DNA of 64,000 nt, taken from contig JBKBRF010000007.1 in assembly GCA_046292385.1 (NCBI GenBank), positions 123,247 to 187,246 on the forward strand, given 5' to 3'. Made by a program: the position numbers and the translations under genes. Below, piece after piece: positions 34,399-58,000 of this stretch. The notes below the pieces were generated by a model, which worked only from the letters and a program-made list of their open reading frames with translations, had not been told where the DNA came from and searched no databases. The DNA comes from Armatimonadota bacterium (lineage in GTDB: Bacteria > Armatimonadota > SYMT01). Each line of letters opens with the position of its first letter. The stretch's first letter is position 1.

Positions 34399-34472
34399 CG
34401 CTCGCGGAGGGATTCGAACCCCCGACACCCGGTTCCGAAGACCGGTGCTCTAATCCACTGAGCTACGCGAGC
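34399..34472 (-). tRNA. tRNA-Arg(UCG), CCA not encoded
   Basis: GCTCGCG TAGCTCAGTGGATTAGAGC A CCGGT CTTCGGA ACCGG GTGTC GGGGG TTCGAAT CCCTC CGCGAGC G. Confidence 0.96.
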
Positions 34473-43880: not shown

Positions 43881-44243
43881 CTAGTAACTCAGGCTCGCCG
43901 CTCCCGAAGTCAGGAACTCCACCGCTTTCGCGCCGCCGACGATCACCGCGCCGTCGACGAGCTTCTCTTCGTCCAGGCCGCGCTTCTTGAAGCAGGGGGA
44001 GCAGACGTAGATCGTGCCGCCGAACTCGGCGAAGTCGGCCATCAGCTCCTTCAGCGGCTTGAAGCCCTCCTCGTGGACGTCGTCCGCGTAGCCCTGCTCG
44101 GAGAGACGCACACCCTCCGTGCTGAGGAAGACGACCGTCTCGACATCCGAGGCGACGGCGGCGTTGGCGACCACGAAGGCGACGGTCGCCTTGTCGGTGT
44201 TGTCTTTCGCGTAAGAGAGGGAGATCAGCAGCTTTCCGGCCAT
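43881..44243 (-). CDS. DsrE family protein
   Basis: VFLSTEGVRL, IYVCSPCFKKRG. Confidence 0.88.
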   Translation of the reverse strand: MAGKLLISLSYAKDNTDKATVAFVVANAAVASDVETVVFLSTEGVRLSEQGYADDVHEEGFKPLKELMADFAEFGGTIYVCSPCFKKRGLDEEKLVDGAVIVGGAKAVEFLTSGAASLSY

Positions 44244-44264
44244 GAGGGTCCTTTCTTCCGTAAC

Positions 44265-44810
44265 TCAATCCTGCTTGCGGCGAATGAAGTAGCTCTCGTC
44301 CTCGGTGGGGCCGGCCAGGAGCGTGTGGCCGGTAAGCCGGCACCAGCTCGGGATGTCGGCCTCCGCGCCGGCGTCCCGGGCGACCAGCTCCAGCACCTCG
44401 CCGGGATCGAGCTTCCGGATCGAGCGCATCAGGAGCACCATCAGGTCGCCGCAGCCCGCCTCTTCCGCGTCGACGCGGAGCGCCGGGGTGGGAAGCTCTT
44501 CCGCCGGGGAGAACAGCTCCGGCCGGAGCCACTCCGGCGGGCTATTCGAGTGCTCCAGGCGGCTGGGGCAGCAGGGAGACTGGCCGTCCCGGTCGCAGAT
44601 CTTCGCCTTCCGCCAGTCCCGGCGGTAGCAGTCCCGGCGGATCAGGTAGTTGCCGACCAGCTCGCACAACTGCTCCGGGGTGGAGCCCAGGCCCTCCCCG
44701 AGGCACCGGAGGCAGCGGCAGGCCCCCTTGCCGGCGAGCACCCGGCTGATGACCTCCTGACGCCCGCAGATCGGCTCAGCACACCGGTCACAACGCCGTT
44801 CCTCTGCCAC
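44265..44810 (-). CDS. Cys-rich N-terminal domain plus TusA-like domain
   Basis: CxxC...C...CxCxxC...C...C...C...CC then VDAEEAGCGDL...DIPSWCRLTGH. Confidence 0.8.
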   Translation of the reverse strand: MAEERRCDRCAEPICGRQEVISRVLAGKGACRCLRCLGEGLGSTPEQLCELVGNYLIRRDCYRRDWRKAKICDRDGQSPCCPSRLEHSNSPPEWLRPELFSPAEELPTPALRVDAEEAGCGDLMVLLMRSIRKLDPGEVLELVARDAGAEADIPSWCRLTGHTLLAGPTEDESYFIRRKQD

Positions 44811-45144
44811 TGCTACCGCCCACCCATCCGGCCGTTCGCTTTCATCCTATCCTTCGTTCCCGAGAACGGTAGCACTGCTCCTTCACTGCGGCGCATCGAA
44901 AGTTCCTATGGAGCGGCCGGCTGCCATTGAAACACCTTCTGGTGCAACTCCCTAAATCGAAAACACCCCCGTGCTCCGCCCGCAGGCATCAGAAAACGCG
45001 ATGCGCCATATCGAGGACTCTGCGGTCGCTGAGTCCAACCAGCACCGGAGGGCTGCCCTGGCCGCCTGTCAACCTGGCGCTGCCCGGTGCGGCGCTCCAG
45101 TCATCATCAGTGAGCCGTCTTCCGTTGGGACGCGGCGGGAGTGT

Positions 45145-46266
45145 ATGGAATTGAGAAACGGATTGTCGATCGGGCGGGTCGTCACCGCCTCACTGGCCGT
45201 GGCGGCGCTCTGCGGGCCGGCGCGGCACGCGCACGCCCAGGGGTGAGTGGTCAATCGCCAAACCGCGCCCGTGCTTGGCGCGGCTGACCTGGGACCGTAT
45301 CTTGAAAAGGGAGAGTGGCAGCTCGGTGCCACTTACCGCACCTTCCGCGCGGACAAGCAGTACACCGGGACGCGCCTCAACCCGCTGGTGACGGCACTCA
45401 AGACCAACGTCATCAGCGAGCTCGACATGCTCGACCTGGGGGTGACCCACGCCTTCAGCCGGCAGTTGAACGTCACCCTGGGCATTCCGATCGTCCTCTA
45501 CGCCAGCTCCTCCCGGGGGCTGCCGTCTACGGTCGCCGGCAGTCCGCGCTTCGTTCACAGCGCGGAGGGGCTCGGCGACATGACGCTGGTCGGGCGCTAC
45601 TGGCTGCTCGACTGCGACAAGCACCAGCACGGCAACGTCTCGCTCGGGTTGGGCGTGAAGTTCCCGACCGGCAACTCGAACGTGCGCGACCGGTTCCCGG
45701 ATGCCACGGGCGCCAACGAGCGGCTGCGGCCGGTCGACCAGTCGATCCAGCTCGGCGACGGCGGCTGGGGGGTCATCTTCGACCTCCAGGCGTTCAAGCA
45801 GGTGGGGAGCGCCACCGTGTTCCTCCAGGGCACGTACCTGGCGAACCCCCGGGGCGAGAACGACACGCTTTCCCCGCCGGCGTTCCTGAGTCCGGCAGGC
45901 CGGAAGGCCGTGCCGCGCTCGCTGCGGTTCAACACGGTGCCGGACCAGTACCTCGGACGCGTGGGCATCACTCACCCGGTGCCGGGCGTGCGGGGACTCA
46001 ACGCGCTGATCGCCGGGCGCATCGAAGGCTCGCCGCGGAACGACCTCTTCGGCGACACCGTCGGCTTCCGCCGGCCGGGCTACGGCATCGCCATCGAGCC
46101 GGGCCTGATCTACACCCTGCCGAACAACCAGACCACGCTCTCTCTGAGCGTGCCGGTGACGCTGCAGGTGAACCGGCAGGCGGTAGCCGGCGTGCCGGGC
46201 GACGCCACCTTCGCGGACTATTCCATCTTCGCGTCGGTGACGCACCGCTTCGGCGGCAAGAAGTAG
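45145..46266 (+). CDS. Putative selenoprotein: outer-membrane beta-barrel (SphA/phenol-MetA transporter-like), 373 aa with UGA at codon 34
   Basis: GGGAG RBS, signal peptide ending AHA, then QG-TGA-VVNRQ in frame with a 339-codon barrel ORF (GLGDMTL, GLGVKFPTG, QLGDGGWG); hairpin just downstream of the TGA. Confidence 0.8.
45249..45289 (+). promoter_or_regulatory. Bacterial SECIS-like hairpin
   Basis: GGTCA/TGACC lower stem; CCGCGCC-CGTGCTT-GGCGCGG upper stem; loop starts 23 nt after the UGA with G at loop position 2. Confidence 0.7.
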
Positions 46267-46292
46267 GGCCAGGTGGCGGACCGGGCTCTACG

Positions 46293-46327
46293 ACGGCCTC
46301 TCCCAAAACTGGGAGAGGCCGTGTTTT
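46293..46327 (+). terminator. Rho-independent terminator
   Basis: ACGGCCTCTCCCA-AAAC-TGGGAGAGGCCGT then GTTTT. Confidence 0.8.
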
Positions 46328-46421
46328 CTAAGGAGGTCCCCCGGCGCGGGTCCGGAATGGTAAAGTGTGAGGTTTCAGAGCTGCGGCCGGATCAACCCGG
46401 CGAGAGGCTGGAGCGCGAACG

Positions 46422-46742
46422 ATGCTGCGAGCACTCCTCATGCTCCCCAACTGGGCGGCCCGGCCGGTGACAGCGCTCTCCGTGCTCGCCAGCGCCGGCA
46501 CCGTCTACTGGTGCTCGATCCTGGCGACCGACTACGCGCGGGAGCTTCACCCGTGGTGCGGTACGGGCGCGGACCGGATCGCCGGTCTGCTCGGCGGGGT
46601 GGTGCCGGCGAGCTTCCTGGTGCCGGCGGTCGGCTGGCTGCTCTGCCGGGGCAACCCGCGGCTCCGCCGGATAGCCCGCTGCGCCACACTCGCGTCGATC
46701 GCGGCGTGGGCGACGGTGCTCACGTGCATCCGCTGGGCCTGA
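46422..46742 (+). CDS. Small membrane protein
   Basis: Three hydrophobic segments. Confidence 0.5.
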   Translation: MLRALLMLPNWAARPVTALSVLASAGTVYWCSILATDYARELHPWCGTGADRIAGLLGGVVPASFLVPAVGWLLCRGNPRLRRIARCATLASIAAWATVLTCIRWA

Positions 46743-46755
46743 CGGCCGGGGCGGG

Positions 46756-47604
46756 TTACTTGCGCCCGCGATTGCCGGAGCGCTGGGCCGGCTTGTCGAA
46801 GAGCAGCACGTACTCGTGCTTGAAGATGTAGAAGCCGCCGCGGAGGGCGCGGTACCGCCAGAGGTTGCCGGTGCGGCCCTTGCCCACCTCGTTGCCCTCG
46901 ATGTTCTTCACCACGATGGAGCGGGTGCGGAATCCGGCCTCGTTCATCACTCGCATGCACTCGAAGCCGAGCGGGATCAGCTCGCCCGCGGAGTACTTGT
47001 CCCCGATCACCACCACCGCGAAGCGGCCGGGGCGGAGCAGGTTGTAGGCGCGGTCCGCCACCCGGCGGAAGCCGTCCAGGAACCCCTCGGTGCCGTCCGC
47101 GTTGGAGAGGTCCTCTTCGCGGTCGCTGAAGCGGATGATGTCGTGGTACGGCGGGTGGAGCACCGCGAGATCGACGTGCTCCCGCTCCCAGCCGTGCAGC
47201 ACTTCCCGGACCCGCACCTCCGTCTCCGGGCTGCCGCTGTCGCCGCAGAGCACGGCGGCGCGGCTGCCGTCGTCGCCCAGCTTCGCGCGGACGTGCTCCG
47301 CCAGCTCCGGCTTCAGCTCCACCCCGATGCAGCGCCGCCCCAGACGGAGCGCCTCCACCGCGCTGGTGCCGGAGCCGAGGAAGAGATCGAGCACCACGTC
47401 GTCCTCCCGCGTGAAGCGGGTGAACGCCTGGGTGGCGATCTGCGGCACGAAGTTGCCGTGGTACTCCAGCGCGTGCCCGTTCCCACGCGCGCGGGAAGGG
47501 ATGAGCCAGAGCGAGTCGGTCCAGACGTCGTCCAGCTCCTTCCAGCGGGTGAGGTCGAGGTCGTTGTAGGGAACGGTGGGGGCGAGCGGCTTACGGGGTT
47601 TCAC
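46756..47604 (-). CDS. DNA methyltransferase (N4/N6 type), orphan
   Basis: YHGNFVPQI, VLDLFLGSGT (motif I), HPPY (motif IV), HEYVLLF. Confidence 0.85.
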   Translation of the reverse strand: MKPRKPLAPTVPYNDLDLTRWKELDDVWTDSLWLIPSRARGNGHALEYHGNFVPQIATQAFTRFTREDDVVLDLFLGSGTSAVEALRLGRRCIGVELKPELAEHVRAKLGDDGSRAAVLCGDSGSPETEVRVREVLHGWEREHVDLAVLHPPYHDIIRFSDREEDLSNADGTEGFLDGFRRVADRAYNLLRPGRFAVVVIGDKYSAGELIPLGFECMRVMNEAGFRTRSIVVKNIEGNEVGKGRTGNLWRYRALRGGFYIFKHEYVLLFDKPAQRSGNRGRK

Positions 47605-47611
47605 GATTGTA

Positions 47612-47696
47612 GGGATGAGGGCGGAAGGATGAGGGATGATGGCGAGCCCTCCGGGTCCGAGCGCTCTTACCCCTACCCGTAATCTTACTCCGACTC
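47612..47696. repeat. Short-period repeat element (7-mer GGATGAG run, then 6-mer pyrimidine-rich run)
   Basis: Same layout as 2431-2510. Confidence 0.55.
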
Positions 47697-47793
47697 GAAG
47701 ACACTTCAGGACCGCGTCTGTTCCCGGCGAGAGATGGCCGCTCCGGTTGAGGGTCTTTCATCTCTCTTCTTCCATCTCCAGCCTTGTGTCAGG

Positions 47794-47822
47794 TTGACGC
47801 GGGACCAATCCTGGGCTAACAT
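47794..47822 (+). promoter_or_regulatory. Sigma70-type promoter of the arg operon
   Basis: TTGACG-17 nt-TAACAT. Confidence 0.7.
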
Positions 47823-47831
47823 TTCCGTGCT

Positions 47832-47927
47832 ATGCAGCCTGTGGTGCGGACAATCGGGTCTCGGCCGGAAGAGCGTCGTCGCCGTCGTACGTACGATCAC
47901 GCGTCCGTTCGGCCGGTGCTACCGTAG
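47832..47927 (+). CDS. Putative arg operon leader peptide (31 aa, five consecutive Arg)
   Basis: MQPVVRTIGSRPEERRRRRTYDHASVRPVLP; CGT CGT CGC CGT CGT at 47874-47888. Confidence 0.8.
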   Translation: MQPVVRTIGSRPEERRRRRTYDHASVRPVLP

Positions 47928-47955
47928 CATTCCCCCAGCAGGTTCGGTTTTCGGC

Positions 47956-47988
47956 AAGACGGAGCAGGTGCTCCGTCTTTTTTGTTTT
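47956..47988 (+). terminator. Attenuator terminator upstream of argD
   Basis: AAGACGGAGC-AGGT-GCTCCGTCTT followed by TTTTGTTTT. Confidence 0.88.
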
Positions 47989-48028
47989 CCGGTAACGGCA
48001 GCGGTGCCGTTTCGGAAGGAGAGCGTCC

Positions 48029-49231
48029 ATGAGCAGCGTCAGCGACTGGTCCCACGAGCAGGTCCTCCAGGCCTATGGCGACTACGTGCAGCACACGTAC
48101 GGCCGCACGCCGATCGTCTTCGTGCGCGGCGAAGGCGCTCGCCTGTGGGACGCGCGGGGCAACGAGTATCTCGACTGGGTCTCCGGCGGGCGCGCCGGCA
48201 GCGCGCTGGGGCACTGCCACCCGGATGTGACCGCCGCGCTGGAGCAGCAGCTCCGCACCCTCACCTACGTCTCCAACGACTTCCACCACCCGTGGGGCGC
48301 GCGGCTGGGGCAGCTCCTGGCGGAGCGGTCCGGCGGCCGGAAGTCGTTTTTCTGCAACTCCGGCGCGGAGGCGTCCGAGACGGCGCTGAAGCTGGCGCGG
48401 AAGTGGGGCAAGGGGAAGCGCGGCGGGGAGTGCGTGGAGGTGATCACGTTCCAGCGGTCGTTCCACGGCCGCACCTACGGCGCGCTCTCCGCTACCGCGC
48501 AGACGAAGTTCCACCAGGGCTTCGAGCCGATCGTCCCCGGCTTCACCTACCTGCCGTGGGAAGACCTGGGCGCGTTGGAAGCGGCGGTCGGACCGCAGAC
48601 CTGCGCCGTGTTCCTGGAGCCGGTACAGGGAGAGAGCGGCACCTATCCCGCCAGCACGGGGTTCATGCAGGGGATCGAGAAGCTCTGCCGGGAGCGGGAG
48701 GTGCTGTTCATGGTCGATGAGGTGCAGACCGGCTTCGGCCGCACCGGCCGGTTCTGGGCGTACGAGCACTTCGGAGTCGATCCGGACGTCGTGACGGCCG
48801 CCAAGGCGGTCGGCGGCGGCCTCGCGCTCGGCGCCTGCCTGGCAAAGCCGGAGGCATGCGCGCTGGTGCCGGGCGATCACGGCTGCACCTTCGGCGGCAA
48901 CCCGCTCGCCACGGCGGCCGGCACCGCGGCAATCGAGGCGCTCGACCGCCACGGCTACGTGGAGAACGCCGCCGCCCAGGGCGAGTACCTGCTGGGCCGG
49001 CTCCGGGAGCTGGGACGCGAGCACCCGCAGGTCAAGGAAGCGCGCGGCCTGGGGCTGATGCTGGCGCTGGAATTCCAGCCGGGCCAGGGGAAAGGCGTCC
49101 TCGGCCGCTGCCTGGAGGCCGGGCTGGTGGTCCACGGCGTCGGCGACGACATCCTGCGGATCCTGCCGCCGGTCATCCTGACTCGAGAAGAGGCAGACGC
49201 GGGGCTTGGTATTCTGGAGAAAGCTCTTTAA
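48029..49231 (+). CDS. argD: Acetylornithine aminotransferase
   Basis: FCNSGAEA, SFHGRT, DEVQTGFGRTG, AK, HGCTFGGNPL; operon context. Confidence 0.93.
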   Translation: MSSVSDWSHEQVLQAYGDYVQHTYGRTPIVFVRGEGARLWDARGNEYLDWVSGGRAGSALGHCHPDVTAALEQQLRTLTYVSNDFHHPWGARLGQLLAERSGGRKSFFCNSGAEASETALKLARKWGKGKRGGECVEVITFQRSFHGRTYGALSATAQTKFHQGFEPIVPGFTYLPWEDLGALEAAVGPQTCAVFLEPVQGESGTYPASTGFMQGIEKLCREREVLFMVDEVQTGFGRTGRFWAYEHFGVDPDVVTAAKAVGGGLALGACLAKPEACALVPGDHGCTFGGNPLATAAGTAAIEALDRHGYVENAAAQGEYLLGRLRELGREHPQVKEARGLGLMLALEFQPGQGKGVLGRCLEAGLVVHGVGDDILRILPPVILTREEADAGLGILEKAL

Positions 49232-49280
49232 GGCCGGAGTGCGATACACGCGACTCAACACGAGTAGGATCTGCCTCTCA

Positions 49281-49332
49281 CGCGGCCTCACCCCCGGCCC
49301 CTCTCCTGAGAGGGGCCGGGGGTGAGGCCGCG
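49281..49332. repeat. REP-like perfect palindrome
   Basis: CGCGGCCTCACCCCCGGCCCCTCTC-CT-GAGAGGGGCCGGGGGTGAGGCCGCG, 25-bp arms. Confidence 0.85.
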
Positions 49333-49360
49333 GGGAGAGCGACGAGTACGGAGATTTTGC

Positions 49361-50473
49361 ATGCAAACTGGTGAACCGAACGCGGGGCGGAGCGCCGCCT
49401 CTCCGGATGATGCGCTGAAGGCGCTGTGGGACCTGCCGTACTCGGAGCTGCGGCGGCTGGCGGAGTACGCGCGGAGCGGCCGCAACCCGGCGGGCGCGAC
49501 GAACGCCGCGATGGTGGCGGTCGACCTGGCCCGCCAGAAGTGCGCCGGGCTGCGGCACCTGCGGGGGGTGGAGGATCTCTCCCGGGACCAGGCGTGGGCG
49601 CTGCTCTCCCTGGCGCGCGTGCTGAAGGAGACCGCCGCGTTCAACCGGACGGCGCACCGCGACATCCTGCCCGGCCGCACGCTGGCGATGGTCTTCGAGA
49701 AGCCGTCGCTGCGCACCCGCGTCTCGTTCGAGACCGGCATGTTCCAGATGGGCGGTCACGCCATCTACCTGGGGCCGAGCGACATCTCCCTCGGAAAGCG
49801 GGAGACGGTGGCCGACGTGGCGCACAACCTGGAGCGGATGGTCGACGGCGTGATGGCCCGCGTCTTCGCGCACGCCACGGTGCAGGAGCTGGCCGCCAAC
49901 TCCCGGGTGCCGGTGATCAACGGCCTCTGCGACCGGGAGCACCCGTGCCAGGCGCTGGCCGACCTGCTCACCGTCTGGGAGCAGCGCGGCGACATCGAGG
50001 GGCGGAAGATCGCCTACGTGGGGGATGGCAACAACGTCGCCCACTCGCTGCTGCTCCTCGGCGCCAAGCTGGGCGCGCACGTGGCGGTCGCGACCCCGAA
50101 GGGGTACGAGCCGGACGCGGGGATCGTCTCCGCGGCGCAGGCGGCGGCGCGCGAATCCGGCAGCAGCGTGCAGGTGACCCACGACCCGCGCGAAGCATGC
50201 GCGGAGGCGGACGTGATCTACACCGACGTCTGGGCCAGCATGGGCCAGGAAAGCGAGGCCGCCGAGCGCGCGCAGGTCTTCGCGCCCTACCAGGTGAACG
50301 CCGCCCTCTTCGAAGCCGCCCGCCCGGACGCCGTCTTCCTCCACTGCCTCCCCGCCCACCGCGGAGAGGAGGTCGCCGGCGAGGTGATGGACGGCCCGCG
50401 CAGCGTCGTCTTCGACCAGGCCGAGAACCGCCTCCACGCCCAGAAGGCGGTCCTGGCGGTGCTTCTGGGCTGA
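49361..50473 (+). CDS. argF: Ornithine carbamoyltransferase with N-terminal extension
   Basis: FEKPSLRTRVSFE, HPCQALAD, DVWASMG, HCLPAHRG, QAENR; start uncertain. Confidence 0.95.
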   Translation: MQTGEPNAGRSAASPDDALKALWDLPYSELRRLAEYARSGRNPAGATNAAMVAVDLARQKCAGLRHLRGVEDLSRDQAWALLSLARVLKETAAFNRTAHRDILPGRTLAMVFEKPSLRTRVSFETGMFQMGGHAIYLGPSDISLGKRETVADVAHNLERMVDGVMARVFAHATVQELAANSRVPVINGLCDREHPCQALADLLTVWEQRGDIEGRKIAYVGDGNNVAHSLLLLGAKLGAHVAVATPKGYEPDAGIVSAAQAAARESGSSVQVTHDPREACAEADVIYTDVWASMGQESEAAERAQVFAPYQVNAALFEAARPDAVFLHCLPAHRGEEVAGEVMDGPRSVVFDQAENRLHAQKAVLAVLLG

Positions 50474-50485
50474 GCTCTCTTTTTC

Positions 50486-51005
50486 GACACAGAGGGACAC
50501 AGATTGGACAGAGAGCCATAGATTGAAGCAGTGGGATCGAGCAAGCGCCGAGAAGACGGGCTGCATGCGGAGCTGACCCACAAGATAATCGGAGTGGCTC
50601 GACGGGTGTACGCGTCGCTGGGCTACGGGTTTCTGGAGAAGGTCTACGAGAACGCCATGGCCCTGGAGTTCGGTCTCGCTGGCATTCAGGTGGTGCAGAG
50701 CGCCCCAATCCAGGTGCGGTATCGCGGCGAGCTGATTGGCGTCTACGAGGCCGACTTGCTGGTGGAAGGGCGAGTGATCGTGGAGCTCAAAGCGGTGGAG
50801 CGGCTGATCGAGATCCACGAGGTCCAGCTCGTCAACTACCTCCGCGCCACTGAGATAGAAGTGGGACTGTTGATCAATTTCGGCCCCCGGTTCGACGTTC
50901 GTCGCAGGATCTTCACCAACGATCGGAAAAGCGGTGGCTCGTCCGGGATCCGCCCCTTGTGACAGGGATCTGTGGTTCTCTGTCTAATCTGCGTCCCTCT
51001 GTGTC
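50486..51005 (+). mobile_element. Inverted-repeat-flanked GxxExxY cassette
   Basis: 38-bp arms at 50486-50523 and 50968-51005 (4 differences) enclosing only the GxxExxY gene. Confidence 0.7.
50531..50962 (+). CDS. GxxExxY protein (PD-(D/E)XK-like)
   Basis: LGYGFLEKVYE, ADLLVE, IVELKAV, QLVNYL, GLLINFG. Confidence 0.93.
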   Translation: MGSSKRREDGLHAELTHKIIGVARRVYASLGYGFLEKVYENAMALEFGLAGIQVVQSAPIQVRYRGELIGVYEADLLVEGRVIVELKAVERLIEIHEVQLVNYLRATEIEVGLLINFGPRFDVRRRIFTNDRKSGGSSGIRPL

Positions 51006-51022
51006 AGAAAACGAAAACCAAG

Positions 51023-52228
51023 ATGAAGAAGATCGTTCTCGCGTATAGCGGTGGGTTGGATACCAGCGTGATCCTCCCGTGGCTCAAGGAGCGCTACCCG
51101 GGCGTGCGGCTCGTGGCGTTCGCGGCGGAGCTGGGGCAGGGGGACGAGCTGAAGAACATCGAGGAGAAGGCCCGCAAGAGCGGGGCGGACGAGGTGGTGG
51201 TACGGGACCTCCGGCAGGAGTTCGCGGAGGAGTACTGCTTCCCGATGCTCCGCGCCCACGCGATCTACGAGGAAGACTACCTCCTCGGCACCAGCATCGC
51301 GCGCCCGATCATCGCCCGGCACCAGGTGCTGGTGGCGCACGAGACCGGCGCCGACGCGGTGGCGCACGGGGCCACGAGCAAGGGGAACGACCAGGTCCGC
51401 TTCGAGCTGACCTACATGGCGCTCGATCCGCGGCTGGAGATCGTGGCCCCGTGGAAGGACCCGACCTTCGAGCTGACCGACCGGGAGACCGCCATCGACT
51501 ACGCCCGGGAGAAGGGCGTGCCGGTCGACCAGACCAAGGAGAAGATCTACAGCCGCGACCGCAACCTCTGGCACATCAGCCACGAAGGGGCGGACCTGGA
51601 GGATCCGGCGAATGAGCCGCAGGACCCCCTCTGGGTGATGTCGGTCCCGGTCTCCCAGGCGCCGGACCAGCCGGAGTACGTGGAGATCCGGTTCGAGCGC
51701 GGCAACCCGGTGGCGGTGGATGGGCAGGCGCTGCCCGGTCACGAGTTGATCGCCCGGCTCAACGAGCTCGGCGGCCGGCACGCGGTGGGGCAGACGCAGC
51801 TGGTGGAGAACCGGCTGGTCGGCATGAAGAGCCGCGGCGCCTACGAGACTCCCGGCGGCACCATCCTCTACGAGGCGCACAAGGCGCTGGAGCATCTCTG
51901 CCTGGAGCGGGACACCTACCACTACAAGCAGGTGGTGGCACAGCGCTACGCGGAGCTCACCTACTACGGCCAGTGGTTCCACCCGCTGCGGGACGCGCTG
52001 CAGGCCTTCGTGGACCACACCCAGCAGGTGGTGAACGGCACCGTCCGCGTGAAGCTCTTCAAGGGCCGCGCGACCACCGCCTCCGTCTCCAGCGACAGCA
52101 GCCTCTACGACCCGCAGCTCGCCAGCTTCGCCATGAGCGGCTACGACGTCACCGCGGCGCGCGGCTTCATCGACCTCTTCGGCCTCCCGATGAAGGTCAA
52201 CCGCCTCCAGCGCCAGCGGGAGGACTGA
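51023..52228 (+). CDS. argG: Argininosuccinate synthase
   Basis: LAYSGGLDTS, LGTSIARP, KGNDQVRFE, ENRLVGMKSRGAYETPGG. Confidence 0.97.
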   Translation: MKKIVLAYSGGLDTSVILPWLKERYPGVRLVAFAAELGQGDELKNIEEKARKSGADEVVVRDLRQEFAEEYCFPMLRAHAIYEEDYLLGTSIARPIIARHQVLVAHETGADAVAHGATSKGNDQVRFELTYMALDPRLEIVAPWKDPTFELTDRETAIDYAREKGVPVDQTKEKIYSRDRNLWHISHEGADLEDPANEPQDPLWVMSVPVSQAPDQPEYVEIRFERGNPVAVDGQALPGHELIARLNELGGRHAVGQTQLVENRLVGMKSRGAYETPGGTILYEAHKALEHLCLERDTYHYKQVVAQRYAELTYYGQWFHPLRDALQAFVDHTQQVVNGTVRVKLFKGRATTASVSSDSSLYDPQLASFAMSGYDVTAARGFIDLFGLPMKVNRLQRQRED

Positions 52229-52246
52229 TCGGAGCCGGCGGTACTC

Positions 52247-52430
52247 ACCGCAGAGAACGCGGAGCGCGCAGAGGGCTCTGGGGAAACGCGGTAGTTCAAC
52301 GGGAGCGAGGGGTCCGCGAAGGCGGTCCCCCGTCCGGGGGATGAAACTTCGTGCCGTGGTTGCCGCGGTTTCAACCGCCCGGTAGCGCTCCTGAGTTCTC
52401 TTGGCGTCTCTTGGCGCTCTTGGCGGTTGA
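52247..52430. repeat. 9-nt-period repeat remnants between argG and argH
   Basis: cgcagagaa cgcggagcg cgcagaggg ... ctcttggcgt ctcttggcg ctcttggcggtt. Confidence 0.6.
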
Positions 52431-52450
52431 ATAAAGGTTCGGAAAGCAAG

Positions 52451-53818
<1,368 letters not shown>

Positions 53819-53928
53819 GCTCCGCCGCTCGCCGGAAGACGAGATGCGCTCGCCTCCCTGTCCGGGGAGTTTGCGAGCCGCCCGGACCGGGAAAAACCCG
53901 CCGAACTCGGTGATCGGGAGAGGAGACG

Positions 53929-54162
53929 ATGAAAACTCTTGGAATCGTGGCGGTGGCGGCGGCCGGGCTGGGCTACTTCCTTTACACGGACCGCGGTCGC
54001 GAGCTGATGAGCCGGGCCGGCGAGTGCGTGCGGGATAACTACGAGCAGCTCCGGGAGCGGATACGCGGGGAGCAGCCGGTGGAGGGGCTGATTCACGAGG
54101 CGGTGGAATCCTCGCACCCGGATACGGCGATGGCTCGCGCCTTCGAACAGGCGGTCGGCTAA
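53929..54162 (+). CDS. Small membrane-anchored protein (YtxH-like)
   Basis: GAGGAG RBS; AAAGLGYFLYTDRGREL. Confidence 0.7.
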   Translation: MKTLGIVAVAAAGLGYFLYTDRGRELMSRAGECVRDNYEQLRERIRGEQPVEGLIHEAVESSHPDTAMARAFEQAVG

Positions 54163-54462
54163 CTCACCGGCGACCCTGACAGTCCTCCGTCAGTCCGGCA
54201 TGGAGGGTGGCTTCGGCGAGGGTGAGTAGGTGAAAGGGCGAGCTTGAGAAGCTGCTTACGGGTGCAGCTCTCCCACTCTCCCTTGCTCCCACTCCATCCC
54301 TCAGAAGCAGCAGGACACACCTGTAGGGTGACTGGCCCGCACCGGGCGGCTCTTGGGGCGTTGAGCCCGAGCCCATCCGGTGCGGGCGTTTCGTTTCCGC
54401 CCCCGGCGGTCCGTCCGGACCCGCCCGAGGGGTGAGGCGGGACCAGCTCGCGGGCCGGACTG

Positions 54463-54601
54463 TGGAGTGCGGCAGCTTGCTGCCGCTTTGGGGAGCCGGC
54501 CGCTCCCGTAGTATGCTCTCGAGCAACAGCAAGCTGGCGCGGGTTTCGACGCGCCGTGATCGCAGCCGGCGGCGAAAGCAGGAGCAAGCTCCCGCACTCC
54601 A
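54463..54601. repeat. REP-like inverted doublet
   Basis: TGGAGTGCGGCAGCTTGCTGCCGCTTT and inverted copy AAAGCAGGAGCAAGCTCCCGCACTCCA. Confidence 0.75.
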
Positions 54602-55018
54602 GGGCCTTCGGCCTGCCTGGACGTAGGACCCTCGTTATCAGGCGGTCGGGCGCACTAGATCGGGAGACGCTCCTGCCTCGCCGTCCTTGCGGCTTAGGGC
54701 TGCCCGAAATCTGCATCGCACCCTCCCTCCGGGTGAGCGCGCCCCTCACCTTCGTCCGCCGCCGGGTTCCACTCCGCCCTTCGACACGCTGTGGTGCCCG
54801 GCGGCATGTCGCTCATCCTACAGCCGCCTGAAAGTTCTCTAAGCAGATTGGCCGCTCGGAGCAGGAAATGTCTGCTTTTGCATTTAAAATGAAATGCAGA
54901 ACCCCTGTTCGGCCTCCGGGCGAGCATCCGCTGCTCGTCTCCCGCCCTTATCCGGTTCGTTGAAGTGCCGACTCGCGGAGCCGGGCTCTCCGCCCGCACT
55001 GTTAGAGGTAGCATCGTG

Positions 55019-58000
55019 ATGATCAGTCCGCGCGCGAAATCTCTTCCCCTCTGGCTGGCCCTGGTGCTGGCCGTGCTGCTCGGGCTCGCCGGAGTGGCGG
55101 CGCCGAAGCGTGAGGCGGGGACCCGCACCACCGCGCCGAAGGTGGACCGCCGCAAGCTCATGCCTCCGCTGCACAGCGTGAAGGGGATGGAGAAGTACCG
55201 GAAGTTCCTGGCGGACAACAAGATCCGCGCCCGCACGGGATACTGGGGTGCCTACCTCCACTGGATGAAGCAGCGGGCCTACCCGAATGACCGCGTAGAC
55301 ATGTCGGCCTACCAGCGCGGCATTGCGCACCGGGAACGGATGCCCGCCGCGCAGATGGGTGGCGGACGCGGCATCAGCGCCGCGGCGGCGAACCGGTGGG
55401 AGTTCCTGGGTCCGAATGGCATCCCGGCGCCTTACCGCATCTACTTCGGCCAGGGCTTCGCGAGCGGACGCGTGAACGGCATCAGCTACGACCCCACCAA
55501 CCCGAACACCCTCTGGGCGGCGGCGGCGTGGGGCGGCGTGCACAAGAGCACCGACGGGGGCCAGAACTGGCGCTTCCTGAGCGGCTCGTGGCCATCACTC
55601 GAGACGAGCGCCCTCACCATTCACCCCACGAACGGGAACATCGTCTACGTCGGCACCGGCGACTTCGACGGCTTCGTGAACGCGTTCCCGATGGGGATCA
55701 TGAAGACGACCGACGGTGGAAACACCTGGACCAACCTCGGCCGCTCCCAATTTGGTGAGTACGGAGTGCGCCGCATCGCCCTCGACCCGGAGAGCCCGAA
55801 CACGGTGATCGCAACGGCCGGTCGCTGGACCCGGGATCCGTTCTCACCCCAGGGCCGGGTCTGGCGCTCCACCGACGGCGGACAGAACTGGACCGCCGTC
55901 ATCACCACCGGCGCCAACTGGTCCGACGTGGAATTCGGGGCCGCGGCCGGCAACGGCAGCCGGCGTCTCTACGCCGTGGGAGAGTGGACGTTCGGGGGTG
56001 AGGTCTGGCGCTCGGATGACCGCGGCGCCACCTGGACTCGACTCACCTCCCCGCTCGATAACCGTTTCCGCCAGGAAGGGATGGACATTGCCACCTCTCC
56101 CACGGACCCGGACACGGTTTACCTGCTGGGCGCGGCGCAGGCGACGATTCACAAGAGCACCGACGCCGGCCAGACCTGGACCGAGGTTACGAACAACTTC
56201 CCGCACGGCGACGGCTTCCTGAACTGGAACCAGTACTGGTACGACTGGTACATCCACTGCACGAAGCGGCCGGATAACAACGGCGACGTGGTGATCGTCG
56301 GCCTGCTTGACGTGGCGGCCTCCTTCGATGGCGGCGCCAGCTGGCAGAGCGTGGCCCACGGGCTCACGGACCAGGCGCTGGTGCATGTCGATCAGCACTC
56401 GATCGCCACGAACCCTACCAACCCCTTGGAGCTGACGCTGGGGAACGACGGCGGCGTCTACCGGATGACGCTGAATCCAACCGGCAAATCGGCCACCTTC
56501 AACACCACTCTCAACCGCACGCTCGGGATCACCCAGTTCTACGCGGCGGATTTCCACCCGACCGATCCGAACGTGATGCTCGGCGGCACGCAGGACAACT
56601 CGACACCGACCTCAACGGGTGACCTGCAGAATTGGGTCAACCCGGGTGTCGGCGACGGCGGCGGCTGTGCGATCAATCCGCTGAACCCCAACATCCAGTA
56701 CAACAGCTCCCAGGGCTACGGCACCATTCTCCGCACCGGCAATCGCTGGGCCACGGCCGGAGTTAACATCACCCCGGGCGCCAACTTCGGGAACGATGCC
56801 CTGCCGTTCATCGGGAAGATGACGATCGACCCGAGTAACCCGAACCGGGTCTACATCGGCACGAACTATATCTGGCGCTGGAACGACGACACCTCCAGTT
56901 GGACGGAGCGGCTCGGCAACCAGCGAATCGCCAACGACGCCAACGCGACGGTGTCCGCGATCGCGGTCGCCCGGAGCGACGGCAACTACATCTACGCCGG
57001 CTCCGATACCGGCGAGCTCTGGATGACCTCCAACGGGGGCACGAGCTGGACGAAGATTAACCCGGGCAGCCCCGGTCTCCCGAACCGCGCGATTACCAGC
57101 ATCGCCGTCCACCCGACCAACCCGAAGGCGATCCTCGTCGGCGTCTCCGGGACCGGCACCGGTCACCTCTGGCGGCTGAACGATACCACCGCGGGCAGCC
57201 GGGTCTGGGTGAACGTGAGCGGCAACGGTACTACCGCGCTGCCGGACATCTCGCTGAACGCGATCGCGCTCGATACCCAGGATCCCACCAACCGCTACTA
57301 CGTGGGGACCGACCTCGGTCTATTCCGCTCGACCGACGCAGGCGCCACCTGGGAGAACGCGACCGGACCGCTCGGACTGCCGAACGTGGCGATCTACGAC
57401 CTGAAGATCGTTCCCGGCACCGGGTATCTGATGGCCGCCACCCACGCCAAGGGGATGTGGCGCATCAACCCGCGGGCCCGGGCCACCGACATCACCATCA
57501 CCGCGCCCACTGTCGGCGTGCTGGTGGGCCGGCAGACGGAGATACGGTGGACCTCGCTCGGCTTCGATCCGGGCCACCTGGTCAAGATCGAGCTGTCCCG
57601 CAACGACGGCGGTAACTGGACCACGCTGGCGGCGAGCACGCCGGACGACGGCAGCTTCCTCTGGACGCCGGACGCGCCGACCAGCACGCAGGCCCGTCTC
57701 CGGATTACCTCGCTCACCGACCCGGGCACGGTGGGGCTCTCCAACCTGCTCACCATAGCGCAGGGCAGCCTGACCGTAACGGCTCCGAACGGCGGCGAGC
57801 GGCTGATTATCGGCAACACCGCCACGGTGACCTGGAGCACCAGCGGGTCCGCGTCGGATAGCCCGGACGTGCAGATCGAGGTCAGCCGGGATAACGGCGC
57901 CACCTGGTCGTCCCTGCTCGACTCCACGCCGAACGACGGCACGGAAGGCGTGGTGATCACCGGCCCGAGCTCCGAGACCGCCCGTATCCGGGTGACGGCG

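Follow-up and report, generated by a model that had tools for sequence, protein, structure and literature searches.

A conserved arginine-codon leader in front of argDFGH in an Armatimonadota bacterium: a probable ribosome-mediated transcription attenuator

The argDFGH leader and its parts

The stretch of DNA considered here, called the window throughout, comprises 64,000 nucleotides of contig JBKBRF010000007.1 (C7 in our numbering) of an Armatimonadota bacterium (assembly GCA_046292385.1), the genome of which has 7.04 Mb, 69% G+C and a completeness of 98.45%. On its plus strand the window carries the arginine biosynthesis genes argD, argF, argG and argH, in this order, and in front of argD lies an element of about 160 nt, the argDFGH leader, which a preliminary description made from the letters of the sequence had presented as an attenuator that senses arginine through a translating ribosome. 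The parts of this leader are listed below (ORF, open reading frame; SD, Shine-Dalgarno sequence; MFE, minimum free energy).

47794..47822, + strand: sigma-70-type promoter TTGACG-17-TAACAT, with the -35 hexamer TTGACG at 47794-47799 and the -10 hexamer TAACAT at 47817-47822
47832..47927, + strand: leader ORF of 31 codons plus stop, with ATG at 47832, TAG at 47925-47927 and no SD
47862..47870, + strand: segment 1, the 5' strand of the predicted anti-antiterminator, paired with 47908-47916 in the MFE fold
47874..47888, + strand: putative regulatory Arg run, codons 15-19 (CGT CGT CGC CGT CGT)
47901..47916, + strand: segment 2, partner of segment 1 or of segment 3; 2:3 duplex of -20.4 kcal/mol
47951..47965, + strand: segment 3, which contains the entire terminator 5' arm and is predicted to pair with segment 2 only when the Arg run is masked
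47956..47988, + strand: intrinsic terminator found by the terminator scan, a 10-bp stem with an AGGT loop, then TTTTGTTTT

The promoter is the only sigma-70-like site between 46500 and 49500, where shuffled sequences lead one to expect 0.1, and the leader ATG stands 9 nt past its -10 box, so that the promoter followed by a 31-codon ORF without SD, as first described, could be read directly. From this spacing we infer that the ORF is leaderless or has a 5' untranslated region (5'UTR) of at most 3 nt. Its translation is MQPVVRTIGSRPEERRRRRTYDHASVRPVLP, and the codon listing confirms the eight Arg codons noticed earlier (CGG CGG CGT CGT CGC CGT CGT CGG), of which five are consecutive, codons 15-19, and four of these five are CGT.

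The terminator scan places the stem AAGACGGAGC-AGGT-GCTCCGTCTT at 47956-47979, with the tail TTTTGTTTTC. As the left-hand neighbour is encoded on the opposite strand, this terminator is not attributable to an upstream gene. The terminator and its T-tract were thus recovered, but the distance of 40 nt to argD given previously had to be corrected, the argD ATG being 49 nt past the stem and about 39 nt past the T-tract. The mutually exclusive pairings can also be read as described, namely 1:2 between CGGCCGGA (47862-69) and TTCGGCCG (47908-15), 2:3 between TCCGTT-CG-GCCG (47904-15) and CGGC-AA-GACGGA (47952-63), and 3:4, the terminator itself, between AAGACGGAGC and GCTCCGTCTT. The MFE fold of the free leader combines the 1:2 pairing with the terminator; compared with shuffled sequences, the fold of the complete 202-nt leader has a modest z of -2.11, 4 of 200 shuffles being equal or better.

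Conservation of the leader and signs of its decoding

A DNA search of 41 genomes with the 281-nt leader returned matches of 35-59 nt only (E of about 1e-5), which on inspection were not leaders, and orthologues were therefore located by means of ArgD instead. These ArgD searches covered the species genomes and metagenome contigs, and loci were considered as related when their ArgD had an identity of 64% or more and 300 nt or more of upstream DNA was available (eight loci, the window included). In seven of the eight a promoter is followed by a short Arg-cluster ORF and a terminator, so that the poly-Arg ORF before argD is indeed conserved in relatives. The Arg clusters of the seven leaders are RRRRR, RRRTRR, RRRPRR, RRRRGR, RRRGRSR, RRRR and RRRRRRAR, and all seven are in frame. 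Six of these loci, referred to below as family-type, are the window and the first five of the following; the last belongs to a sister family.

L070: start codon 9 nt past the -10 hexamer; leader peptide MLAETPKAGIRHEDRRRTRREPICASLPPVLR
L072: start codon 8 nt past the -10 hexamer; leader peptide MERLARSIRVGNEERRRPRRKPILASLEPAPR
L042 (G005): GTG start 9 nt past the -10 hexamer; leader peptide NTSFGQIESGHKERRRRGRNPIGAPVPRQRS
L041 (G002): start codon 8 nt past the -10 hexamer; leader peptide MIRSADEIRHRGVVSRRRGRSRFSVMERTPVLSH
L044 (G001): GTG start 6 nt past the -10 hexamer; leader peptide LTIAVRIESRQRRRREHWLIDEPDVA
L045 (= L005), sister family: leader peptide VSSAISFSRRRRRRARCSA; 5'UTR of about 70 nt, GGAG before a GTG start, then a terminator

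All six family-type loci have a TTGACR-17-TAnnnT promoter before the ORF and a terminator after it, and in the alignment of the six sequences the TTGAC of the -35 and the T/A positions of the -10 are invariant. The near-leaderless arrangement proposed for the window extends to the whole set, as the start codon is found 6-9 nt past the -10 hexamer, without SD, in each of the six. The orthologous ORFs have 27-34 codons in L041, L042, L044, L070 and L072 and 19 codons in L045, and the stop codon is separated from the terminator motif by 29-35 nt in the four family-type loci measured. Of a ninth locus, L043 (= L006), only 168 nt of upstream sequence is available, in which the terminator alone is visible. 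Among 64 loci (24 + 40) from other families of the phylum, with an ArgD 40-53% identical, none has an Arg-run leader with a terminator; the cases flagged there were rejected, being artefacts in another frame, terminators that belong to upstream genes, or junctions of argB and argD.

The way in which these leaders vary points to an ORF that is read by ribosomes. In the six family-type loci the cluster has its first Arg 14, 14, 14, 14, 15 and 12 codons from the start, the differences in length being therefore multiples of three, with indels that kept the frame; in either other frame CGTCGT would encode Val or Ser. In the alignment of the leader peptides M1, R15 and R17 are invariant and good conservation is confined to the initiator and the Arg cluster, the identity outside the run being 32-45% over about 30 residues, with a few recurring positions (I at position 8, E-E/D before the run and P-I-x-A-S after it). 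The codon CGT is as unusual as had been noticed by comparison with the neighbouring genes: it accounts for 4.6% of Arg codons genome-wide (2156 long ORFs), and for 21 of the 46 Arg codons in the six family-type leaders versus 8 of 226 in the downstream genes of the same loci. Such a strong enrichment of a rare codon is sensible only if the codons are decoded. The leader of the sister family (L045) contains no CGT, and CGA makes up 3 of its 7 Arg codons.

Contigs of close strains, recovered from four metagenome runs, differ from the window at seven positions inside the ORF. Four of these are synonymous third-position changes, including a CGT>CGC within the Arg run, and the others are TAG>TAA and two adjacent changes that turn His23 into Cys; in the same four runs no variant falls within segment 2, segment 3 or the terminator stem.

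We also searched the source genome for similar elements. A scan for short ORFs with at least four consecutive Arg codons and a terminator-like site gave 29 candidates genome-wide; those on contigs C4 and C20 were rejected, being a convergent-gene end and the upstream region of a Crp/Fnr-like gene. A first scan for CGT clusters yielded uninformative noise, and a stricter one, in which CGT-rich Arg clusters were required, gave 8 candidates. The argDFGH leader was the sole candidate judged convincing in both scans (29 and 8) and the only one found with a promoter and downstream arg genes. On these comparisons of sequence, we consider that the leader is a real, conserved regulatory element.

The modelled switch and its rivals

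We folded the transcript from its start codon as far as the terminator loop, hence without the terminator 3' arm, with a ribosome represented by a 30-nt mask that covers -15 to +14 of the A-site codon, and read out the probability (P) that the terminator 5' arm pairs with the stretch from the Arg cluster to just past the stop codon, that is, that the antiterminator forms. For the six family-type loci, P was as follows.

Window: free 0.00; ribosome at first Arg codon 0.75; at stop codon 0.00
L070: free 0.00; first Arg codon 0.82; stop codon 0.01
L072: free 0.00; first Arg codon 0.31; stop codon 0.00
L042: free 0.00; first Arg codon 0.71; stop codon 0.00
L041: free 0.53; first Arg codon 0.74; stop codon 0.00
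L044: free 0.00; first Arg codon 0.82; stop codon 0.00

Antiterminator P is thus 0.00 without a ribosome in five of the six loci and at most 0.01 with a ribosome at the stop codon in all six, and in the window it ranges from 0.47 to 0.76 with the ribosome over Arg15-19. The notion that a ribosome on the Arg run would free segment 2, and one at the stop would mask it, is upheld in these constrained folds. When the mask was moved codon by codon, the permissive stretch of the window was found to be codons 8-19, and in all six loci the Arg cluster forms the 3' edge of this stretch; P drops to 0.19 or less within two codons of the last Arg in five of them, and in L041 it stays at 0.74 for two further codons and then falls. 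The best 2:3 duplex occupies the same alignment columns in the six loci (about 114-146 with 178-199), with energies of -12.9 to -23.4 kcal/mol. In the MAFFT alignment of the six sequences the terminator, which is the most conserved block of the leader, has 98.3% of its cells paired and two pairs changed on both sides, and the antiterminator has 78.2% of its cells paired versus 36-45% when the structure is slid along the alignment. Compensatory pairs in relatives were obtained for the terminator; for the antiterminator the covariation was not significant.

We consider it likely that the leader is a ribosome-mediated transcription attenuator of the classical trp/his type that senses charged tRNA-Arg, an interpretation supported by both the comparative and the modelling evidence. 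Transcription would start at the leader ATG or a few bases before it, and 70S ribosomes would translate the leaderless 31-codon ORF. With Arg-tRNA plentiful, the ribosome would pass the five Arg codons, reach the stop and cover segment 2, so that the terminator (47956-47979 and the T-tract) would form and transcription would stop before argD; in the absence of any ribosome, segment 1 would pair with segment 2 and the terminator would form too. With Arg-tRNA scarce, and particularly when the isoacceptor that reads CGU is scarce, the ribosome would stall on the rare CGU codons and cover segment 1, leaving segment 2 free to pair with segment 3, which holds the terminator 5' arm, and RNA polymerase would continue into argD; this read-through probably extends across argF, argG and argH.

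Several observations weigh against this interpretation. Equilibrium folds of the full leader retain the terminator in every ribosome state, so that the switch has to rely on the antiterminator forming before the terminator 3' arm is made; a terminator that wins in full-leader folds is expected of a kinetic switch. In the model, L072 reaches an antiterminator P of only 0.13-0.31 at its Arg codons and L041 forms the predicted antiterminator in the free state too (0.53). The energy of the 2:3 duplex clearly beats that of shuffled segment 2 in two of the six loci only (the fraction of shuffles at least as good is 0.038 for the window and 0.004 for L041, and 0.100, 0.204, 0.636 and 0.190 for the others). 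In the covariation test of the antiterminator 92-194 of 500 shuffles reach the observed values, and the structure tested had its origin in one member of the alignment; six sequences are too few for covariation to prove the 2:3 helix. The leaderless start is deduced solely from hexamer spacing, and the contigs that carry the strain variants have a depth of 2-5.4, some of the differences being possibly errors. Among the related loci, L073 (ArgD 67% identical) has a promoter and neither a leader ORF nor a terminator. Finally, no Arg-run leader was found upstream of the separate argC-argJ-argB cluster on contig C3, so that the element would govern only a part of the pathway.

Other ways of controlling the pathway bear on the choice between explanations. 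No match to the C-terminal domain of ArgR (PF02863) was obtained from the source genome or from the 61 genomes of the phylum that were searched, 55 of which have a completeness of 90% or more, while the control of the search matched 8 of 14 reference genomes; the question of whether argR is present, which came with the preliminary description, was thus answered by PF02863 not being found. Rfam searches of 44000-56000 of the window (E up to 10) and of 11 related loci (E up to 0.01) gave no match to a leader, T-box or riboswitch. As ArgR was not found, another arginine regulator may exist, and the terminator could be a genuine attenuator switched by an RNA-binding protein or a ligand-binding RNA, the Arg ORF being incidental or secondary. 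The weak covariation of the antiterminator is in favour of this explanation, as are three loci of another family (L051, L056 and L111) in which argD is preceded by a promoter, a small ORF devoid of an Arg run and a terminator, and which show that a terminator can stand upstream of argD where Arg codons are lacking. It is nevertheless unlikely, because the Arg cluster is in frame in all seven leaders while the remaining peptide and much of the RNA drift, because the enrichment of rare CGT makes sense only with decoding, and because the mask scan locates the run exactly where a stalled ribosome would free segment 2; the lack of an Rfam riboswitch or T-box match argues in the same direction. A sensor acting through the nascent peptide, either poly-basic or arginine-dependent, which would arrest the ribosome in response to free arginine like the fungal peptide or SpeFL, a sensor of ornithine, would account for the residues that recur outside the run (I8, E-E/D before it, P-I-x-A-S after it), and runs of basic residues can slow ribosomes. 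In this pairing geometry, however, stalling at high arginine would cause read-through under plentiful arginine, the reverse of what a biosynthetic operon requires, and the poor conservation of the peptide outside the run (32-45% identity over about 30 residues), the strain variant His23 to Cys and a rare-codon bias indicative of decoding rate make such a sensor very unlikely.

The translation of the leader might also modulate Rho-dependent termination or the stability of the mRNA, with the hairpin as a weak pause or stability element, and the Salmonella speF leader, the ORF of which has consecutive Arg codons, is a case where Rho and RNase G are used instead of an intrinsic terminator (PMC6386406). 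The hairpin of the argDFGH leader is, however, an intrinsic terminator of canonical form, with a G+C-rich stem of 10 bp, a loop of 4 nt and a T-tract; it is also the most conserved block of the leader, and in each of the six loci segment 2 finds its pairing partner in the 5' arm of this hairpin, so that this explanation appears highly improbable. Open frames and Arg-rich translations are common in DNA of 69% G+C, and the z of the overall leader fold is only -2.11, both of which would suit a chance origin, in which CGT repeats in an untranslated G+C-rich 5'UTR merely accompany a constitutive hairpin; chance would hardly explain, however, an arrangement that recurs in seven of the eight related loci and in none of the 64 loci of other families, the frame of which is preserved despite indels and which is the sole such element found in a 7.04-Mb genome, and we regard it as extremely improbable.

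The arginine genes of this lineage and comparison with known leaders

The order argD-argF-argG-argH that had been assigned after the leader is borne out by NCBIfam profile matches for all four genes. These genes, and a further hairpin that the leader fold places between the terminator and the argD SD, are listed here.

47987..48017, + strand: second hairpin, between the terminator and the argD SD (leader fold)
48029..49231, + strand: argD, acetylornithine aminotransferase (NCBIfam TIGR00707, 425.9 bits, over the cut-off)
49322..50473 (ORF bounds), + strand: argF, ornithine carbamoyltransferase (TIGR00658, 414.7 bits)
50972..52228, + strand: argG, argininosuccinate synthase (NF001770, 566.8 bits)
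52427..53818, + strand: argH, argininosuccinate lyase (TIGR00838, 598.3 bits)

The true start of argF is probably later than the ORF bound, because the profile match starts at residue 77. No promoter-like or terminator-like site was detected from argD through the end of argH, which is consistent with a single transcription unit. In the second hairpin, the strain contigs of two runs have G-C in place of an A-U pair, through the joint changes 47994 A>G and 48011 T>C, and G-C in place of G-U, through 48012 T>C; as these changes are of a compensatory kind, they suggest that selection acts on the hairpin. A comparable small hairpin precedes the SD in L044, and not in L041, L042 or L072.

Between argD and argF there is a perfect 25-bp inverted repeat with a 2-nt spacer (49281-49332), which gave spurious miRNA-model matches on both strands and is REP-like, since its 20-nt core is present 31 times in the genome (both strands counted). 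Between argF and argG, an ORF of the GxxExxY family (50531-50962; TIGR04256, 131.8 bits) is bordered by short CACAGAGGGACACAGA-like inverted sequences and looks like an inserted selfish gene, or one of unknown function, within the arg cluster. Upstream of argJ on contig C3, at about 263480-263563, there is a TTGACC-17-TATACT promoter and behind it a hairpin, GCCCCGG...CCGGGGC with TTTT, the 5' arm of which is overlapped by a possible five-codon mini-ORF (TTG TTG CCC CGG CGC TAA) just before the argJ ATG, and a small ORF on the opposite strand sits between argC and argJ. Upstream of argC on the same contig, the stretch 261612-261945 is flanked by inverted copies of the repeat CGTATTGCGTA / TACGCAATACG, with three tandem copies on its argC side; an array of operators and a small mobile element are both conceivable.

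Using ARAGORN, ten tRNA-Arg genes were predicted, one of them with the anticodon ACG. A tRNA-Arg(TCG) is predicted in the window itself, at about 34399-34472 on the minus strand (C7:157645-157718), and three putative tRNA-Arg(GCG) genes have an unusual length of 76-87 nt; a tRNA-Arg(GCG) would be atypical for bacteria.

In other families of the phylum, leaders of other kinds were observed. In family f19, at L051 and L056 (last 200 nt before argD) and at L111:500-640, a TTGACA-17-TAnAAT promoter before argD is followed by a small SD-led ORF that begins with MK-x-P-(I/A) and has no Arg run (MKKPICMTTEYGDSA, MKTPAILPTKYGFAKFGDRA and MKIPIYQY...), then by a strong terminator; no match was obtained in Rfam, and this arrangement may represent a different kind of attenuator. 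In L058 (family f3), at about 315-490 of a 530-nt upstream stretch, a GTG ORF, VWEESQRVHRFRWPAQMPQRCDSRPAPLPCYARA, with scattered Arg codons starts 4 nt after a TTGACT-17-TAGAAT promoter, and a CCGGCG-GA-CGCCGG hairpin with a T-tract comes next, before argD; this leader may be a divergent relative of the Arg leader. With ArgR not found in the 61 genomes searched and a leader without Arg run in at least one other family (f19), one could also regard the argDFGH element as part of a wider change in which leader-ORF attenuators took the place of ArgR across the phylum, an unlikely reading. The second leader type, with its MK-x-P-I/A ORF, could be a nascent-peptide sensor of free arginine, in which case two devices, one that senses tRNA charging and an arrest peptide that senses a ligand, would serve this pathway within one phylum.

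Classical leader-peptide attenuation, the textbook case of gene control sensed by the ribosome, is documented for Trp, His, Leu, Thr, Ile/Val and Phe (in Proteobacteria trpL, hisL, leuL, thrL, ilvL/ivbL and pheL), with a translational form for Cys, and rare regulatory codons are found in the leu leader as well. Bacterial arginine biosynthesis is usually under repression by ArgR/AhrC or under Arg T-boxes. Control of the argDFGH genes by the leader would share with these the target pathway and the physiological purpose, and T-boxes also read tRNA charging; the difference is that sensing would go through the translating ribosome. A likeness in fungi is the arginine attenuator peptide (arg-2/CPA1 uORF), which gives arginine-responsive control of an arginine-biosynthesis gene. 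That system is eukaryotic and relies on a conserved peptide by which free arginine is sensed within the exit tunnel; it has neither an Arg-codon run nor a terminator, and both its sign and its mechanism differ from those proposed for the argDFGH leader.

In full-text searches of the literature we found no Arg-codon leader for bacterial arginine biosynthesis, an earlier prediction in the 2010 Lopatovskaya survey being possible, and this agrees with the initial impression that such a leader is undescribed for the pathway. The element is very probably a transcription attenuator that senses Arg-tRNA, and its novel aspects are arginine as the amino acid, the apparently leaderless leader and its occurrence in a little-studied lineage in which ArgR was not found. 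If the interpretation is true, arginine joins the amino acids with classical attenuation, and the leader shows how a lineage without ArgR controls its arginine pathway. With about 160 nt, the element is small enough for direct reporter or coupled transcription-translation testing, and it might be of use as an arginine-responsive part.

As in classical attenuators, a short ORF with a run of cognate codons and an intrinsic terminator precede the first structural gene, the predicted 1:2, 2:3 and 3:4 pairings are mutually exclusive, and the codons are placed so that a stalled ribosome would free segment 2. Unlike them, the argDFGH leader uses arginine and appears to be leaderless, without SD, and it has no sequence or Rfam relationship to the known leader families. 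It displays the sequence-level features that define the trp, his and leu attenuators, the antiterminator as a candidate, and is predicted to work as they do. In Actinobacteria, one survey (PMC1262725) describes attenuator candidates for trp, ilv/leu and cys, reports that no RNA element was seen there upstream of arginine operons, and places arginine elsewhere under T-boxes.

For the sensing of Arg codons, the nearest bacterial precedent found is orf34 of Salmonella speF, where consecutive Arg codons gauge arginine through the pace of the ribosome and select alternative RNA structures (PMC6386406). It differs from the argDFGH leader in that it controls polyamine synthesis (ornithine decarboxylase), has two Arg codons, works via Rho and RNase G and is not leaderless. 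For a leaderless sensory small ORF, the nearest precedent found is provided by the mycobacterial polycysteine ORFs of the 'Cys ribulon', at which stalling remodels the downstream RNA (bioRxiv 10.1101/834739). That work describes, as proposed here, a leaderless sensory first cistron with a run of cognate codons by which a biosynthetic operon is turned on, the amino acid and the phylum being different. Those ORFs act on translation, unlike the argDFGH leader, the target of which would be an intrinsic transcription terminator: the alternating structure is the terminator 49 nt before argD, with the argD SD outside it, so that the layout is not one in which a ribosome-binding site is unmasked. If true, the argDFGH leader would unite the terminator/antiterminator switch with leaderless sensory small ORFs, which have so far been described separately.

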